From contig JBBDOA010000116.1 in assembly GCA_040877275.1 (NCBI GenBank), forward strand, positions 16,695 to 80,694: DNA of 64,000 nucleotides. The letters run 5' to 3'. Position numbers and translations under genes: made by a program. The notes under the pieces are model-generated. The model saw nothing but the letters and a program-made list of their open reading frames with translations. It had not been told where the DNA came from and ran no database searches. Each line of letters starts with the position of its first letter. Position 1 is the first letter of the stretch. Source of the stretch: Rhodospirillales bacterium (GTDB taxonomy: Bacteria > Pseudomonadota > Alphaproteobacteria > Rhodospirillales > Casp-alpha2). Positions 13,073-46,362 of the stretch are shown one piece after another.

Positions 13073-14893
13073 TCAGGGCTGAGCCTTGAAATACGGCAGA
13101 TCGTCTTCATTGGTGCAGCCAAGGGTTACCAGTCGCTCCGTTATTTTGACGGCGCGCTGATATTTCGTTTCGCATTCGCTGCGTGACAAGGCATTCATGT
13201 GCGGGCCGACAAGGGCAACGCCGTAATTGGCCTGCAGCGTCCTGACTTTTCGTCGGGTTCCGAGGCCGTCGGCAATCCAGCCCAGATCAAATTCCATCTG
13301 TTTGACGACGCTGTAACCGCGATTGAGGATATCCGCCCGCATTTCGGCTTCGGTCGCCAGGGTCGTTTCCCAATAGGCGCCTTCCGAAGTGGATGCCTCT
13401 GCCGATGCCCGAACGAAGGCATCGCAAAATAACAGATAGGCAATTTCCTGTTGTGACGCGGTGCGCCAGGCACTGTCGGCAAGGCTGTTCCAGACGGAAA
13501 TGTTCAGTCCGGCATAAATTTCCGGGACCTTGGTGAAGAAAATTTTATGCAGCTTGTTATCGTTGATCGTCAGATCGAGCCTGCGTTCCTTGTAAATATC
13601 AACCGCCGAGTAGATACCGCATACGGGACACGCATCACCTTCCGTCTCGTTTTTTCTGTAGATATGCGAACAAGGCAGGCCGCGCGCGATATCGTTTTTA
13701 CAGAGAAGATAGGTTTCCGGCTCATTCTCATCGTCCTGTTGCTGGCCGATCCAGTTGAAGCGGTTCTGAAACTGCATAAAGGATCGTGGCGGCGACCACA
13801 GGGTCCATTTGAGCTTTTCAACCGGACCAAAAGTCGTCCAGTTCGAGCTGACATCAATGACGACGCATTTTGTCTTGCCCGGCGATGAGCGCAGCCCGCG
13901 GCCGACGGACTGCCCCCACAGGACTTTCGATAACGTCGGCCGCATATGCACGATGATGTTGCATTCGGGGTTGTCCCATCCTTCCGTCAGCACGCCAACG
14001 GAAACCAGGGCCTCGATATCACCGCTGTTGTGGCCGCTCAGAATTTGGCGTCGCTCCTTCAGCGGTGTGCCGGCCGTGATGATCGCTACCGTGACGCCGA
14101 TGCTTTCGATTCTGTCGCGCGTGATCTCGGCGACCCGGATATCGGGGCAAAACCATGCTGATATCGGCTGGGCATCGATTGCCGCCCGTTCTTCCATGTA
14201 GGCACGGATGGCATAATCAAGCATGGATGATTTGATGATCTCGTCGGTCAGCCGCGAGACGGGAAATTCACCGGCACTGACATCGATATGATCCAGATCC
14301 AGATCGTGAACAAAATGCGGACGGTACTCCGGCTGGACGAGAATGCCTTCTGATATGAGATCCTGGATATCCGCACAGTCTATGATCGCATCAAACGCCA
14401 GACTGAGTTGATCGCGCTGATCCCCGGTACGCCGTTCCGGCGACGCGGTCAGGCCCATGAAGTGGGCCGTCTGTTTACCATCCTTTTTGAATTTTTCGAT
14501 GATGCGCCGGTAACCGCGCCCGTTCGGTGACACACGATGCGCCTCATCGACAATGATCAGGTCGGCCTTGGGGATGGCGTCATCCAGAACTTCCCTGGCC
14601 CGCATGCTGGTCGACAGCAGGATGTCATAATCGTCGAAAGCCGTTCCCTTGTCGGAAACGGCCAGCGTCCTGACACGCCTGCTTTCACCCAGCGCCTCCT
14701 GCAGCTGATCCAGCAGCACGAGGCGGTGGCAAAGGACAATGACTTTCTTGTCGGCATAAAACTGATCAATGATTTGCCGTGCAAGCACGGTTTTTCCGGC
14801 ACCGGTTGGTGCTTTTAATATGAACCGTTTATAGGTGGCCGAGATCGACGGGAAATCATCGATGATTTTCTGCTGCCAGTTTCGAAGCTGCAT
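13073..14893 (-). CDS. SF2 DEAD/DEAH-box helicase (RadD/Irc3-like) with Cys cluster and C-terminal extension
   Basis: LRNWQ, APTGAGKT, DEAH, GLTASPER, LTEGWD, QSVGRGLR; C..C..CPVC. Confidence 0.85.
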   Translation of the reverse strand: MQLRNWQQKIIDDFPSISATYKRFILKAPTGAGKTVLARQIIDQFYADKKVIVLCHRLVLLDQLQEALGESRRVRTLAVSDKGTAFDDYDILLSTSMRAREVLDDAIPKADLIIVDEAHRVSPNGRGYRRIIEKFKKDGKQTAHFMGLTASPERRTGDQRDQLSLAFDAIIDCADIQDLISEGILVQPEYRPHFVHDLDLDHIDVSAGEFPVSRLTDEIIKSSMLDYAIRAYMEERAAIDAQPISAWFCPDIRVAEITRDRIESIGVTVAIITAGTPLKERRQILSGHNSGDIEALVSVGVLTEGWDNPECNIIVHMRPTLSKVLWGQSVGRGLRSSPGKTKCVVIDVSSNWTTFGPVEKLKWTLWSPPRSFMQFQNRFNWIGQQQDDENEPETYLLCKNDIARGLPCSHIYRKNETEGDACPVCGIYSAVDIYKERRLDLTINDNKLHKIFFTKVPEIYAGLNISVWNSLADSAWRTASQQEIAYLLFCDAFVRASAEASTSEGAYWETTLATEAEMRADILNRGYSVVKQMEFDLGWIADGLGTRRKVRTLQANYGVALVGPHMNALSRSECETKYQRAVKITERLVTLGCTNEDDLPYFKAQP

Positions 14894-15099
14894 TAAAATC
14901 CTAACAAAATAAACAAAGCCAGCGAGTATACATGATTTACGTTGGATAGCCACAAAAGGGTGGCCGCAAGAGGTGGATACATATTGGTTCCCGACGACAC
15001 AGAAAAGGCCGCATTGTCAGGGACAACCACTGATGATGCAGGAAGTCGCTTTCAGGGACCTTACAACGCTGAAATGCGCAAGGGCCGTATTGACGTCGA

Positions 15100-16533
15100 T
15101 CAGGCCTGAACGGCGGGCAGGGTGATGGTGACCGAAAGCCCGCCTTCCTCGCGGTTGGCCAGCGAAATGTCGCCACCGTGTCGGCGGACGATGTCGCGGG
15201 CAATCGCCATGCCGAGACCAATGCCGCCGGTATCCGCGTTTCTGGATGTGTCGAGGCGGACAAACGGCTCGAATATACGTTCGAAATCATTGGCCGGAAT
15301 GCCGGGCCCTTCATCTTCAATGATGATTTGGGGGCCGGACGGCGTGTTTTTCAGTGTGACCGTGGCATGCTTGCCATACGTGGCGGCATTTTCGATCAGG
15401 TTGGTCAGCGCCCGTCTCAGCGCCGATGGTCGGCAAGGATAGACAAGCTTTGCCGGGGCATTGACCGTGATCGCATGACCAATAGCCCCCAGATCGTCAC
15501 CGACCGCCTCGATCAGGGCGGCCAGTTCGGTGGCCCGGGTCGGCTCGCTCGAGGCTTCTTCACGGGCAAAGGCCAGGGTTGCCTCGACCATGTGCTGCAT
15601 GTCGGACAGTGTGGCGATCATGCGTTCACGGGCCTCGTCATCATCGAGCATTTCGGCGCGCAGCCTGAGCGAGGTGATCGGTGTGCGGAGGTCATGGCTG
15701 ATCGCGGCCAGCATCTGCGTGCGGTCGGCGACGAACTTGTGCAGGCGTTCCTGCATCTCGTTGAAGGCGCGGATGGTTTCGCGGACATCGGCCGGGCCGT
15801 CTTCCTTGAGGGGGCTGACGGTCTCGCCGCGGCCGAGCCTGCCGGCAGCGGCGGACAACTGGCCAAGCGGCCGGGTGATGCGGCGGAGCGCAAACGCGAC
15901 GATGACACTGATGGCGATGGCGGTGACGATAAATGTAATCCAGCCATCGGTTCGGATCAGGCGGAGCGGCGGACGCGACTGCAGGGCGGCGTTCATCCAG
16001 CGATCCGGACCCAGCGCAATGGCGACAACCGTGCTGCCGTGGTCAAACTGACGGGGTGCGCCGGTGGCCGCCGGGACACCCTGTACCCTGGATTTCATTT
16101 TGTGAGGGGCATCGTCATCCTCGTCGTGCTGACGATAAACACGGATCTGGTCCGGACGCAGGTCATCCAGTTCGGCGGCGATGCGCTGGGCCAGCTCGCG
16201 GGCGCGTTTGGCGTCGCCCCGTTCGTCGCCATCGGTCGGTTTGCTGATCGCCGGCTGATCGCTGACCCACACCTGCAGGCGGCGGCTGACGAGCGCCTGG
16301 GCGATCTTGTCCTGCTGTTCGACCGGCATGTCCCTCAGCAGCGCTGCCAGCGGTGCGATACGGACCGCCATGAAACGGGTTTCGGCACCTTCAAAATATG
16401 ACTGCGTCTCGCTGCGGATGATCAGGGCGGCGGCAATCTGGGCGCTGAACAGGGCAATGATCAGCAGCATGATGGTCTGTCCCATCAGACGTTTCGGCCA
16501 CAGCTTTGCCAAAAGGACGCGGAGCGCGTTCAT
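15100..16533 (-). CDS. HAMP-domain membrane sensor histidine kinase
   Basis: Two TM segments, HAMP, SHDLRTP, NLIENA, DEGPGI, GIGLG. Confidence 0.92.
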   Translation of the reverse strand: MNALRVLLAKLWPKRLMGQTIMLLIIALFSAQIAAALIIRSETQSYFEGAETRFMAVRIAPLAALLRDMPVEQQDKIAQALVSRRLQVWVSDQPAISKPTDGDERGDAKRARELAQRIAAELDDLRPDQIRVYRQHDEDDDAPHKMKSRVQGVPAATGAPRQFDHGSTVVAIALGPDRWMNAALQSRPPLRLIRTDGWITFIVTAIAISVIVAFALRRITRPLGQLSAAAGRLGRGETVSPLKEDGPADVRETIRAFNEMQERLHKFVADRTQMLAAISHDLRTPITSLRLRAEMLDDDEARERMIATLSDMQHMVEATLAFAREEASSEPTRATELAALIEAVGDDLGAIGHAITVNAPAKLVYPCRPSALRRALTNLIENAATYGKHATVTLKNTPSGPQIIIEDEGPGIPANDFERIFEPFVRLDTSRNADTGGIGLGMAIARDIVRRHGGDISLANREEGGLSVTITLPAVQA

Positions 16534-17249
16534 GCGACGTCAACGTCAGCCGTGAATTTGTAGCCGCCGCCCCATACGGTCTGGATGATGGTCGGCTTCC
16601 TGGGATCAACCTCGATTTTTTTCCTGAGCCGGCTGACCTGATTATCGATGCTGCGGTCGAACAGCACCGCATCGCGACCGGCGGTAAGGTCAAGCAGCTG
16701 TTCGCGGCTCAGTACCCGGTTCGGGCGTTGCAGCAGAACATTGAGCAGACGGAATTCGGCGCTCGACAGCGCCACCGCGACACCATCGGTGCCGATCAGT
16801 TCGCGTCGGCGGGAATCAAGCGTCCATTGATCGAACGTGATGGTGCCGCCCGCCGGGGCTTCAATAGCCGGTGGCATGGCCTGGGTCCGGCGCAGCACGG
16901 CCTTGATACGGGCCAGCAGCTCGCGCGGGTTGAACGGTTTGGTCAGATAATCATCGGCACCAACCTCAAGGCCGACAATGCGGTCGGTTTCCTCGCTCAT
17001 CGCGGTCAGCAGGATCACCGGTAGATCGGTGGTCTCGCGCAGATGCCGGCACAGCGACAAGCCGTCCTCGCCCGGCATCATGACGTCGAGTACGACCAGA
17101 TCGGGAGCGGTATCCTTGAGCCGCTCGCGCAGCTCGGCACCGCCGCTGGCAACCGAGGTCCGCATCCCGTTTTTCGTCAGATAACGGGCCAGCGGGGTGC
17201 GGATGTCTTCGTGGTCATCGACCACCAGGATATGCGGTGTTGTGCTCAT
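16530..17249 (-). CDS. OmpR-family response regulator
   Basis: REC (VVDD, LDVMMPG, KPF) plus winged-helix (DRSIDNQVSRLRKKIE, TVWGGGY); overlaps kinase start. Confidence 0.93.
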   Translation of the reverse strand: MSTTPHILVVDDHEDIRTPLARYLTKNGMRTSVASGGAELRERLKDTAPDLVVLDVMMPGEDGLSLCRHLRETTDLPVILLTAMSEETDRIVGLEVGADDYLTKPFNPRELLARIKAVLRRTQAMPPAIEAPAGGTITFDQWTLDSRRRELIGTDGVAVALSSAEFRLLNVLLQRPNRVLSREQLLDLTAGRDAVLFDRSIDNQVSRLRKKIEVDPRKPTIIQTVWGGGYKFTADVDVA

Positions 17250-17295
17250 GGCTTCTGTTATAGCGCCTTGCAGGCCCGGCGCCGCATGCAAAATT

Positions 17296-17373
17296 TGTAT
17301 CCGGATGTGACAGCTCTGCCATTCGTCACACATTGCGACAATTGGGCAGGATGCCCGGCATAGTTTTGCGACA
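17296..17373. promoter_or_regulatory. Putative OmpR-type tandem operator in divergent promoter
   Basis: GTCACA-N4-GCGACA (17325-17340), inverted GTCACA-N4-GATACA (17296-17311), extra GCGACA (17368-17373). Confidence 0.45.
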
Positions 17374-17418
17374 AAACAGGCTTAGCTTGTCCTCATCTGA
17401 ACACACACCAATGAGGTT

Positions 17419-17880
17419 ATGAAAATGAAAAACAGAACAAAATTTCTTGCAGCGCTTGGACTGATCAGCGGCCTTGCCGTGACCGGCTATGCGCTCAACG
17501 CCGATGCCGGCGGATCACACGGCCGTGATGGCGGTCATCACAAGGGCAAGCGCATGATGCACATGATGGAGCGTTATGACGTCAACGGCGACAGTGCCCT
17601 GACCCAGGACGAAGTACTGGGCGAACGCGCGAAACAGTTCAAGACGTTCGACAAGAATACAGACGGCGTTCTTGATCTTGCCGAATACAAGGCGCTTTGG
17701 GCTGAAGCGATGAATGAACGGATGGTCAGGGGCTTCCAGCGTTACGACCGCGACGGCGACGGTAGGGTTTCCGAGCAGGATTACTCGAAAAAGATTGCCC
17801 GCATGATTGCCTGGATGGACAAAAACGGTGATGCCAAGGTCGACCGTGACGATTTCCACCGCCCGCACAAGGCCGACTGA
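17419..17880 (+). CDS. Secreted EF-hand protein (four EF-hand loops, His/Met-rich linker)
   Basis: Signal peptide; DVNGDSALTQDE, DKNTDGVLDLAE, DRDGDGRVSEQD, DKNGDAKVDRDD. Confidence 0.85.
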   Translation: MKMKNRTKFLAALGLISGLAVTGYALNADAGGSHGRDGGHHKGKRMMHMMERYDVNGDSALTQDEVLGERAKQFKTFDKNTDGVLDLAEYKALWAEAMNERMVRGFQRYDRDGDGRVSEQDYSKKIARMIAWMDKNGDAKVDRDDFHRPHKAD

Positions 17881-17959: not shown

Positions 17960-19117
17960 TTATAGTGGCAGATCTATTTGTATGATGTATCGCCTCGGGC
18001 CTTCCTGCAGGCTTTCGACGGTACCGCCGTGCGCCCTGACGATGGCGCGGATCAGCGGCAGGCCCTTGAACAGGCTGTCGAGATCAGGGGCACCGATAGT
18101 GCGTGCTTCGTTCGTGTTGTTGGCAGGCATCGGCGGGGTCGGTGAAATCACTTTGAGCGTCAGTCCCGTTTTGGCATCGAACGACGTCTCGACATCGATC
18201 GTCAGGCCGCGTCCGGTGGTTTCAACGGTCGCCTCGATCAGGCGCCGGATACATTGCGTAAGACGGTCCTGATCGCCGCGGATGCGGCCCTTTGTCGAGC
18301 TCCACTTGCGCCTCAGCATGACGCCACGGCGCTCTGCTGGTCCGGCGGCGGCACGGCAGGTCTTGTCGACGATTTCTTCCAGATCGATTTGCGTCATCGG
18401 CCCCAGCGGAATGTTCACGCCGTATTCCGCCAGCGTGGTGTCGACCAGGGTGTTCATGGCATCAAGCAGATGCGAGGCAGCACTGCGGATGTCGCGGGCA
18501 TACTCGGCATATCCGACGGGATGTACGGGACCCAACGTCTGATTGGCGATCATTTCGGAAAAGCCGACAATGGCGTTGAGGGGGGTTCGCAACTGGTGGC
18601 TTAACTGATTGAGCAGATTGATCAGCGGCTCCTGATCCTTGGAAAAATCGCCATGGCTGGCAGGCGGTTGTATTGCCGTGCGGGCATCGAACGTCTGCCC
18701 CATTTTTTCGGCGCATTCGCGAATGAACTTTTCAACCTCCGCCGCGACCATCGGCGAGATATCGATACGGCGGCGGCGGGCATCCTCGGCATCCGGCACC
18801 TTGCTGATCGCGCCGCGGCGTTCCAGTTCGGCAAGTCCGGAGATCGCCGTACCTTTCGACAGCCGGGTTGCAAGATAGATGTCGGTGACGTTCGGTGTGA
18901 CGCCCTGCAGATAGCTCTGCATCAGAAAATACAGGATATCCCAGGTTGATCGATTGAACGCATCCGGTTGTTTATCAATCGAAAGCAGGTCGCTTAAGCG
19001 TTCCGATATATCCCGGTGCCGGTATAATTCATAGCGAACAACATGTTCCAGAACGCGTGCGCGCTCTGAAATCTCAGGGGTTTTCTCCGATATTGTAGGC
19101 TCTGCCATCGACTCCAT
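17960..19117 (-). CDS. MarR-like winged-helix domain fused to HisKA and a degenerate HATPase (pseudo-histidine kinase)
   Basis: WDIL...LSKGTAISGLAELERRGAISKVPDAEDARRRRI; SHQLRTPLNAIVGFSEMI; N/G1/G2 boxes lost; start uncertain (19108-19138). Confidence 0.75.
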   Translation of the reverse strand: MESMAEPTISEKTPEISERARVLEHVVRYELYRHRDISERLSDLLSIDKQPDAFNRSTWDILYFLMQSYLQGVTPNVTDIYLATRLSKGTAISGLAELERRGAISKVPDAEDARRRRIDISPMVAAEVEKFIRECAEKMGQTFDARTAIQPPASHGDFSKDQEPLINLLNQLSHQLRTPLNAIVGFSEMIANQTLGPVHPVGYAEYARDIRSAASHLLDAMNTLVDTTLAEYGVNIPLGPMTQIDLEEIVDKTCRAAAGPAERRGVMLRRKWSSTKGRIRGDQDRLTQCIRRLIEATVETTGRGLTIDVETSFDAKTGLTLKVISPTPPMPANNTNEARTIGAPDLDSLFKGLPLIRAIVRAHGGTVESLQEGPRRYIIQIDLPL

Positions 19118-19240
19118 CCCACATAAGCCTGAACGCATAACCGTTCAGATCTGATCTGGCTTAGTGTAGGATTGAACCGAATACCGGTATATAGGTGTAA
19201 TCCACAGTCCTAATTAAGGACGGAATCGGTACGCAGATGG

Positions 19241-45846: not shown

Positions 45847-45996
45847 TTTGACGGCCTACTGGATTAGGTCGATAGCCCGACGCAGCACCATTTGACTCAT
45901 ACAAGGTATTATACCATTCTCTGGCCGATTTTCAGGGGCTGGCCCTTTTCAATTATTACGGCCATAATGCCTTATGGTCTTGCAAGGATGCATCTG

Positions 45997-46362
45997 ATGG
46001 CGAGTAAAATCCTTATCGTTGAAGACAACGATCTCAACATGAAATTGTTCAACGATCTGCTGCAGGCGCATGGCTACGAGACCATACAGACAGTTGACGG
46101 GCGTGACGCGCTGAAACTGGCAAGGGAACATTCGCCCGATCTGATCCTTATGGATATTCAACTGCCGGAAATTTCCGGTCTTGAAGTCACCAAGATGCTC
46201 AAGGCCGACGACGACCTCAAGGGGATTCCGGTCATTGCCGTGACCGCGTTCGCCATGAAGGGTGACGAAGAGAAAATCCGTGAGGGCGGCTGTGAAGGGT
46301 ATATCGCCAAGCCGATATCCGTGCCGCATTTTCTGGAAACCGTGAAGAAATTCCTGAGCTGA
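45997..46362 (+). CDS. divK: Cell-cycle single-domain response regulator DivK
   Basis: [47 protein letters not shown]. Confidence 0.93.

Follow-up and report, generated by a model that had tools for sequence, protein, structure and literature searches.

The fold of histidine kinases can be reused for sensing, for relaying or for inhibiting, as is exemplified by DivL, ChpT and RetS, respectively. To our knowledge, all pseudo-histidine kinases that have been described act on other signalling proteins. ChpT and Spo0B are four-helix-bundle dimers that bear a histidine and are combined with a CA-like domain that is unable to bind ATP. RetS is a membrane-located hybrid kinase with receiver domains, which acts by DHp heterodimerization with GacS. 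DivL carries PAS domains at its N-terminus as well as a membrane anchor, lacks a DNA-binding domain, and signals to the kinase CckA rather than to DNA. In DivL of Caulobacter crescentus the transmitter has taken on the role of a sensor for phosphorylated DivK, and ATP binding is weak (PMC4211667).

The protein analyzed here is encoded in a stretch of 64,000 nt of DNA, which is called "the window" throughout. It consists of a MarR-fold winged helix, a flexible linker, a HisKA DHp domain with His181, and a CA-like domain, in this order. It shares with DivL the retention of the HisKA/HATPase_c fold without kinase action, and R184, N/T188 and F193 of the window family are the counterparts of the DivL contact residues R553, T557 and Y562. 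In contrast to the window protein, which has kept the histidine and has lost the ATP boxes, DivL has a tyrosine in place of the histidine and its CA boxes are still recognizable. With ChpT and Spo0B the window protein has in common a DHp domain with a histidine and an ATP-dead CA-like domain. These two proteins are devoid of a DNA-binding domain, however, and in two species of the window family the histidine appears to be dispensable. RetS of Pseudomonas aeruginosa (PDB 6dk7, 7n0e), which appeared high in the fold and sequence searches, also has a transmitter that functions in the absence of normal autophosphorylation, but it has a GacS-type partner, and nothing comparable is indicated for the window protein. 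Each part by itself is of a known kind, the MarR fold as well as the pseudo-histidine kinase. A fusion of a MarR domain with a histidine kinase and a graded series of losses were not found described in the literature searched, which is not a proof of absence.

Domain architecture of the window protein

The initial annotation had proposed a reverse-strand reading frame that encodes a winged-helix domain together with a transmitter that retains the histidine and is ATP-dead. The reading frame was verified with the ORF list (Table 1), and both parts of the proposed architecture were recovered by Pfam, structure searches and an alignment to intact relatives. The N-termini of the homologues fall 16–25 residues ahead of a conserved ER.RV motif in the alignment, and the Atlas record of the window protein opens at residue 11. 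Therefore, Met11 at position 19108 is probably the true start, which would result in a protein of 382 aa; its codon is preceded by GGAG. At E values of up to 1 Pfam reported only HisKA, HATPase_c, MarR_2, MarR and HTH_27, and neither a receiver domain nor a PAS domain nor a phosphotransferase family was matched. A transmembrane segment was also not detected (maximum Kyte-Doolittle value over 19 residues of 0.82), and thus the absence of transmembrane and receiver domains had been annotated correctly.

Table 1. Coordinates of the window gene, its domains and its upstream element, and of proteins with related N-terminal domains. Positions without a locus number are those of the window.
Feature	Coordinates	Strand	Basis or origin
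Whole ORF	17960..19138	(-)	ORF list; 392 aa including stop
MarR-type winged helix, residues ~21-146	18701..19078	(-)	Pfam, PDB profile, AF2, Foldseek
Variable linker, residues ~147-169	18632..18700	(-)	pLDDT and alignments
HisKA DHp, residues ~170-240	18419..18631	(-)	Pfam HisKA, AF2 helices
Degenerate CA (HATPase_c-like), residues ~249-392	17963..18394	(-)	Pfam, alignment, AF2, Foldseek
Conserved non-coding element with TAGG-N13-CCTA	19187..19215	(-)	Upstream alignment
Stand-alone N-terminal domain, 132 aa	L100 1484-1882	(-)	Sister genus
N-terminal domain and vestigial DHp without H box, 220 aa	L101 1000-1659	(+)	Sister genus
N-terminal domain and PAS domains, no kinase	L102 694-2349	(-)	Sister genus
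N-terminal domain and PAS-kinase, 688 aa, G1 and G2 degenerate	L103 621-2684	(-)	Sister genus

The N-terminal domain was assigned with several approaches. A profile that had been built from 18 N-terminal domains matched only PDB chains of the MarR family, with MepR as the best match (E 7e-6, chain residues 12–126), and all Foldseek matches of the N-terminal AlphaFold model were also members of this family. Structure prediction of the protein alone yielded a confident MarR-type domain and a retained DHp/CA fold. The pLDDT values were 85–97 over the MarR-type domain; the mean was 86 for the model of the full protein, and the N-terminal domain modelled alone reached 85. The model exhibits the MarR order of helices, with a recognition helix at residues 95–107 and a two-stranded wing at residues 111–127. 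In the alignments, S94-K95-G96-T97-A98-I99 of the recognition helix was called invariant, and the wing has the motif D116..D119-x-R121-R-R. The residues S94, K95 and T97 of the helix and D119 and R121 of the wing were found unchanged in 59 sequences, including relatives with only about 25% identity. Taken together, the N-terminal ~125 residues share with the MarR family (e.g., MepR, PDB 4lll) the fold, the recognition helix and the beta wing with its D-x-R motif, and stand-alone relatives of the domain exist as well. Unlike in the MarR family, the model (a monomer prediction) does not contain a C-terminal dimerization helix after residue 145, and the window protein has the disordered linker and a putative, kinase-derived dimer module instead. 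A further difference is that the MarR_2 match of the window protein (residues 62–122, E 6.6e-5, 23.4 bits) stays below the curated cut-off of 27, which is exceeded by the relatives P0122 and P0125.

The linker is predicted to be disordered, with pLDDT values below 50 for residues 148–166, and its length and sequence differ among the homologues. The HisKA match of the DHp domain (residues 174–234, E 1.4e-9) passed the curated cut-off of 26.9 with a score of 38.3 bits, and the two DHp helices were predicted at residues 170–198 and 209–238. The H box reads S-H181-Q-L-R-T-P-L, the codon of His181 being located at 18596–18598, in agreement with the annotated histidine that is followed by Gln at H+1. 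This Gln is found in the window sub-clade, and position H+4 is occupied by a nearly invariant Thr (T185). Across 59 sequences R184 and L187 are invariant, and P186 is, like T185, nearly so. PdhS and DivJ provided, with their DHp-CA cores, the best partial NCBIfam matches, and the best PDB sequence match of the window protein was DivL (PDB 4q20, E 1.3e-8), which supports the proposal that the DHp domain is PleC/DivJ-like.

The HATPase_c match of the CA domain (residues 288–391, E 3.4e-4, 21.5 bits) did not reach the curated cut-off of 26.4. The alignment to intact relatives revealed that the N box, G1 and G2 have indeed been lost as initially described. The Asn of the N box (NLLxNAIKYTP in intact relatives) is replaced by Ala303, and across the clade this position is occupied by Ala, Gly, Val or Ser. 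The G1 motif DxGxG has been changed to Ser332-Pro-Thr-Pro-Pro (VISPTPP), with Ser332 at the position of the Asp, and the G2 motif GxGLGL to F-K-G-L-P-L. In addition, about 10 residues of the ATP lid have been deleted, including the F box. In the AF2 model the alpha/beta fold of the CA domain is kept and the lid has a low confidence; the top Foldseek matches of the kinase half were ZraS, RetS, HK853 and DivL.

Relatives, descent and selection

About 55 protein clusters with lengths of 380–400 residues are 50–100% identical to the window protein, and beyond these there is a sharp drop to ordinary kinases. An exhaustive HMMER search uncovered further full-length relatives, which have identities of about 30% to the window protein. 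P0122–P0125, P0128, P0138 and P0152, with identities of 24–29% in the alignment, have the N-terminal domain in common with the window protein, together with HATPase_c matches of 58–100 bits and, as the alignment revealed, canonical N, G1, F and G2 boxes. As the boxes have been kept, these relatives should be active kinases. The intact wHTH-histidine kinases (loci L043–L046), which are uncharacterized, have the N-terminal domain and the type of DHp domain in common with the window protein and match it in length, and they differ from it by having kept the canonical boxes that it has lost. Therefore, homologues with the annotated fusion do exist, but the fusion is not limited to the dead clade, since intact kinases share the N-terminal domain.

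In genomes as well as in metagenome contigs the locus of the window type has the order ABC transporter, mnmA, DUF599, DUF983 and the gene itself. The genes of the intact relatives L043 and L044/45 adjoin DUF599, mnmA or both, as well as the ABC gene. Another group encodes proteins of 252–262 aa, which consist of a MarR domain and a His-bearing DHp domain and have no CA domain, and its genes are found at the same ABC-mnmA-DUF599 locus as the window gene. As intact kinases that share the N-terminal domain occupy the same locus in related bacteria, the window protein is a derived pseudokinase, and the fusion is older than the window clade. The protein goes back to a small group of working wHTH-histidine kinases that are found at this locus in related marine Rhodospirillales. 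In a tree built on the N-terminus and the DHp domain, intact lineages separate the branch of the degenerate-CA clade (100/99) from that of the CA-less clade (100/99). This placement and the implausibility of a regain of the canonical boxes argue that the kinase function was lost twice, independently, among the descendants of an active wHTH kinase, although long branches call for some caution.

The retained parts are all under purifying selection, with Nei-Gojobori dN/dS values of about 0.0–0.14 in close pairs with an unsaturated dS of 0.3–0.9; the values are rough, because dS is high in most pairs. The DHp domain is the best-conserved part of the protein, with a mean pairwise identity of 79% and dN/dS values of 0–0.03 in close pairs, compared with 0.06–0.12 for the N-terminal domain and 0.05–0.14 for the degenerate CA domain, and hence neutral decay of the kinase half was not seen. 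In the CA-less clade the N-terminus and the DHp domain together have dN/dS values of 0.03–0.05, and the short tail is nearly neutral. A histidine is present at the position of His181 in 20 of the 22 aligned family members and is replaced by Arg in the sister species with loci L030 and L031. Between these two the DHp domain has a pN of 0.12 versus a pS of 0.66, and the dN/dS is about 0.08. Because selection persists despite the loss of the ATP boxes or the histidine, ATP binding and, in one lineage, the phospho-acceptor seem not to be needed for the selected function. The shared denominator is the MarR domain and the surface of the DHp domain. The reading frame is unbroken at every locus of the clade apart from L026, where the assembly is fragmented and the adjacent genes are interrupted as well. 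The dN/dS values in close pairs, including the His-to-Arg and the CA-less lineages, led to the rejection of neutral decay.

A search with the full protein at E <= 1e-40 had indicated a restriction to one genus. This turned out to be a threshold artefact when the N-terminal profile was used, with which the domain was found in 37 of 81 genomes and in 9 of 18 genera of the GTDB family of the window. In the genus of the window the gene is single-copy, and it was present in all 13 genomes searched. A second genus carries the same degenerate clade (L104), and another genus has the intact type, with one copy frameshifted in its assembly. In this copy (G605; L097, 512–1685, reverse strand) the intact-type orthologue is split into frames of 296 aa and 93 aa, which could be an assembly error or a third, ongoing decay.

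Further versions are encoded in sister genera (Table 1). As the N-terminal domain stands alone and also joins many different C-terminal modules, its distribution has the pattern of a DNA-binding output domain. A natural series from a working kinase to a stand-alone domain thus exists in one bacterial family, with several of the forms at one locus, and it is useful for asking which parts of a transmitter matter once catalysis is gone. In a distant alphaproteobacterium (G518; L042, 230–1923, reverse strand) an ORF of 419 aa encodes a MarR-PAS-HisKA protein and is followed immediately, in another frame, by an ORF of 145 aa with an intact HATPase_c domain; this gene pair represents a wHTH-PAS-kinase gene that has been either split or frameshifted.

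The region upstream of the window gene

The upstream regions of orthologues with saturated synonymous sites were aligned. The alignment revealed a conserved element of ~30 nt directly after the stop codon of DUF983, the core of which is the inverted repeat TAGG-N13-CCTA at 19192–19212, followed by TATAC. The repeat has a fixed distance to the coding sequence in three groups, and the 13-nt spacer differs between clades. It is found in this form in most of the window clade, as AAGG..CCTA in the CA-less clade, and as TAGG..CCGA in one intact relative, and the full repeat is missing from the intact relatives L043 and L044. Two palindromes that had been annotated as candidate autoregulatory sites both exist as written. 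ATACCGGTAT is not kept at orthologous loci and was therefore rejected as a conserved site, whereas GTCCT-N5-AGGAC overlaps the left arm of the conserved repeat.

The repeat TAGG-N13-CCTA is regarded as a candidate operator. Its right arm runs on as CCTATATAC, which resembles the alphaproteobacterial -10 consensus CTATAT, and overlaps a -10-like CTATAT. Due to this overlap the element could be a promoter only, or the site of another factor, and it may thus represent a promoter, an operator or both. In addition, the arm centres of classical MarR dimer sites are usually roughly 10 bp apart, in contrast to the 17 bp of the candidate operator. A search for a regulon revealed no enrichment, as TAGG-N13-CCTA occurs 4 times in the genome, compared to 1–3 times for other spacings; likewise, six-base arms with up to one mismatch were not enriched genome-wide. 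In five relatives TAGG-N13-CCTA is found 4–6 times, and the reversed control is much more frequent than the repeat (89–162 occurrences).

A second conserved palindrome, AATAGGTCA-N7-TGACCTA(TT), was found at G000:C124:8268–8288 (locus L071, 2069–2089). Its outer arms and their spacing are as in the repeat upstream of the window gene. This palindrome is flanked by two divergently oriented genes, one for a TPP-dependent enzyme and one for an NAD-dependent epimerase. Of 8 genomes of the genus, 7 have the orthologous site, which might serve as a second operator or be bound by a different factor. In the window sub-clade the spacer of the repeat upstream of the window gene (19198–19206, reverse strand) reads TGTGGATTA, and it is absent in this form from other clades; TGTGGATTA matches the DnaA-box consensus at 8 of 9 positions.

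Possible modes of action and gene neighbourhood

The preferred reading, to which a probability of about 0.5 is assigned, is that the window protein is a MarR-type DNA binder that would be dimerized by its DHp domain, would act on its own promoter, and would have kept the kinase-dead transmitter as a docking or regulatory input. It would be a cytoplasmic regulator, in which a flexible linker of ~20 residues tethers the MarR-type domain to the ATP-dead transmitter. The four-helix bundle of the DHp domain would dimerize the protein, and the two MarR domains could then be positioned on an inverted repeat, for which TAGG-N13-CCTA in the promoter of the gene itself is the best candidate. The kinase-dead DHp/CA module would serve as the input. 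A response regulator would dock on the H-box surface formed by R184, T185, P186 and L187, and the module would function either as a sensor of whether the regulator is phosphorylated, as in DivL, or as an ATP-independent phosphatase. Docking of the regulator on the DHp/CA module would change DNA binding.

Several points argue against the preferred reading. The linker, which is flexible in the prediction, does not offer an obvious route for allostery. Furthermore, the Pfam scores for MarR_2 and HATPase_c are below the cut-offs, and no response-regulator gene was found linked in all clades at the compared loci. At the candidate operator, the overlap with the -10-like sequence, the spacing of the arms and the lack of the full repeat in L043 and L044 have to be considered as well.

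A more specific version is that the protein is a transcription factor that reads the phosphorylation of a response regulator, e.g., DivK, directly at the promoter, so that the two-component information flow would be reversed and short-circuited. It is tempting to speculate along this line, but we regard this version as doubtful. If the MarR-type domain binds DNA, the phosphorylation state of a regulator could be read at a promoter without a kinase step. If, in addition, the promoter-reading view is true, the family would document the stepwise conversion of a kinase into a one-component regulator, via intact proteins, a dead CA domain, no CA domain, no histidine and a vestigial DHp domain.

DivK had been named as a possible partner in the initial annotation. 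A stand-alone DivK orthologue is indeed encoded in the window (45988–46359, forward strand); it was identified by comparison with Caulobacter DivK (PDB 1m5t, E 2.3e-57), and NCBIfam is without a model for alphaproteobacterial DivK. The gene is flanked by genes for a Crp-family regulator and an S41 peptidase, and an adjacent PleD gene is not present. At least 11 kinases with PleC/DivJ-like cores are encoded in the genome, and among 41 genomes of the bacterial family 37 encode DivK, irrespective of the presence of a gene of the window type. Co-occurrence with DivK was therefore uninformative as evidence for a partner. A DivK gene is present in the window and the core is PleC/DivJ-like, but neither co-occurrence nor the DHp type singles out DivK.

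As an alternative, the window protein could be a cytoplasmic response-regulator phosphatase or a DivL-like adaptor without any contact to DNA, with the MarR-like domain as an inherited input domain that binds a ligand or a protein or senses redox conditions. In the intact relatives the MarR-like domain occupies the position of a kinase sensor domain, and no regulon is apparent beyond one or two sites. In HisKA kinases Thr or Asn at H+4 serves the phosphatase activity, and Glu or Asp at H+1 the kinase activity. The nearly invariant T185 and the exchange of the acidic H+1 residue for Gln in the window sub-clade are consistent with a phosphatase. However, a pure sensor role would leave unexplained the invariant recognition helix, the Arg-rich wing, the stand-alone versions of 132 aa and the inverted repeat that is conserved in the promoter of the gene itself. 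Moreover, sensor domains are usually joined to the DHp domain by continuous signalling helices, which the disordered linker does not resemble. Taken together, this alternative is considered rather unlikely, although it fares better than the other ones.

A histidine phosphotransferase of the ChpT/Spo0B type, which would relay phosphate between receivers via His181 and possibly while bound to DNA, is an unlikely explanation. ChpT is built in the same way, from a His-bearing DHp domain and an ATP-dead CA-like domain, and the histidine has been kept in 20 of the 22 aligned members and also in the CA-less clade. On the other hand, a phosphotransferase family is missing from the Pfam results, and the H box is that of a canonical HisKA domain. 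The presence of His181 is in accord with the phosphate relay considered in the initial annotation, but the Arg in the two sister species, in which the DHp domain is still under purifying selection, argues against an obligatory phosphorelay.

Even less probable is that the dead transmitter acts like RetS, i.e., that it forms DHp heterodimers with a PleC/DivJ-like kinase and thereby blocks this kinase. Structures of the RetS kinase region were among the best structural and sequence matches, and potential partners with closely related cores are numerous in the genome. But a linked kinase partner gene that is conserved across clades was not found at the compared loci, and neither the conservation of the MarR domain nor the upstream repeat would be explained. 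Lastly, although the catalytic motifs are gone, a functionless, decaying remnant of a kinase can practically be dismissed in view of the single-copy gene in all 13 genomes that were searched in the genus, the frame that is intact except at L026, dN/dS values far below 1 in every domain, and the confidently predicted fold.

Downstream of the window gene and next to it, a gene for an EF-hand protein with a signal-peptide-like N-terminus (17419–17880, forward strand) lies beside a gene pair for an OmpR-type regulator and a HAMP kinase (15100–17333, reverse strand). This trio (15100–17880) adjoins the gene in most of the clade and is absent from L030–L034, which are the loci that diverge most. A gene for a ResIII/DEAD helicase-like protein of 626 aa (13073–14953, reverse strand) is shared, among the compared loci, only with the closest relative L026, and it may be a recent insertion.
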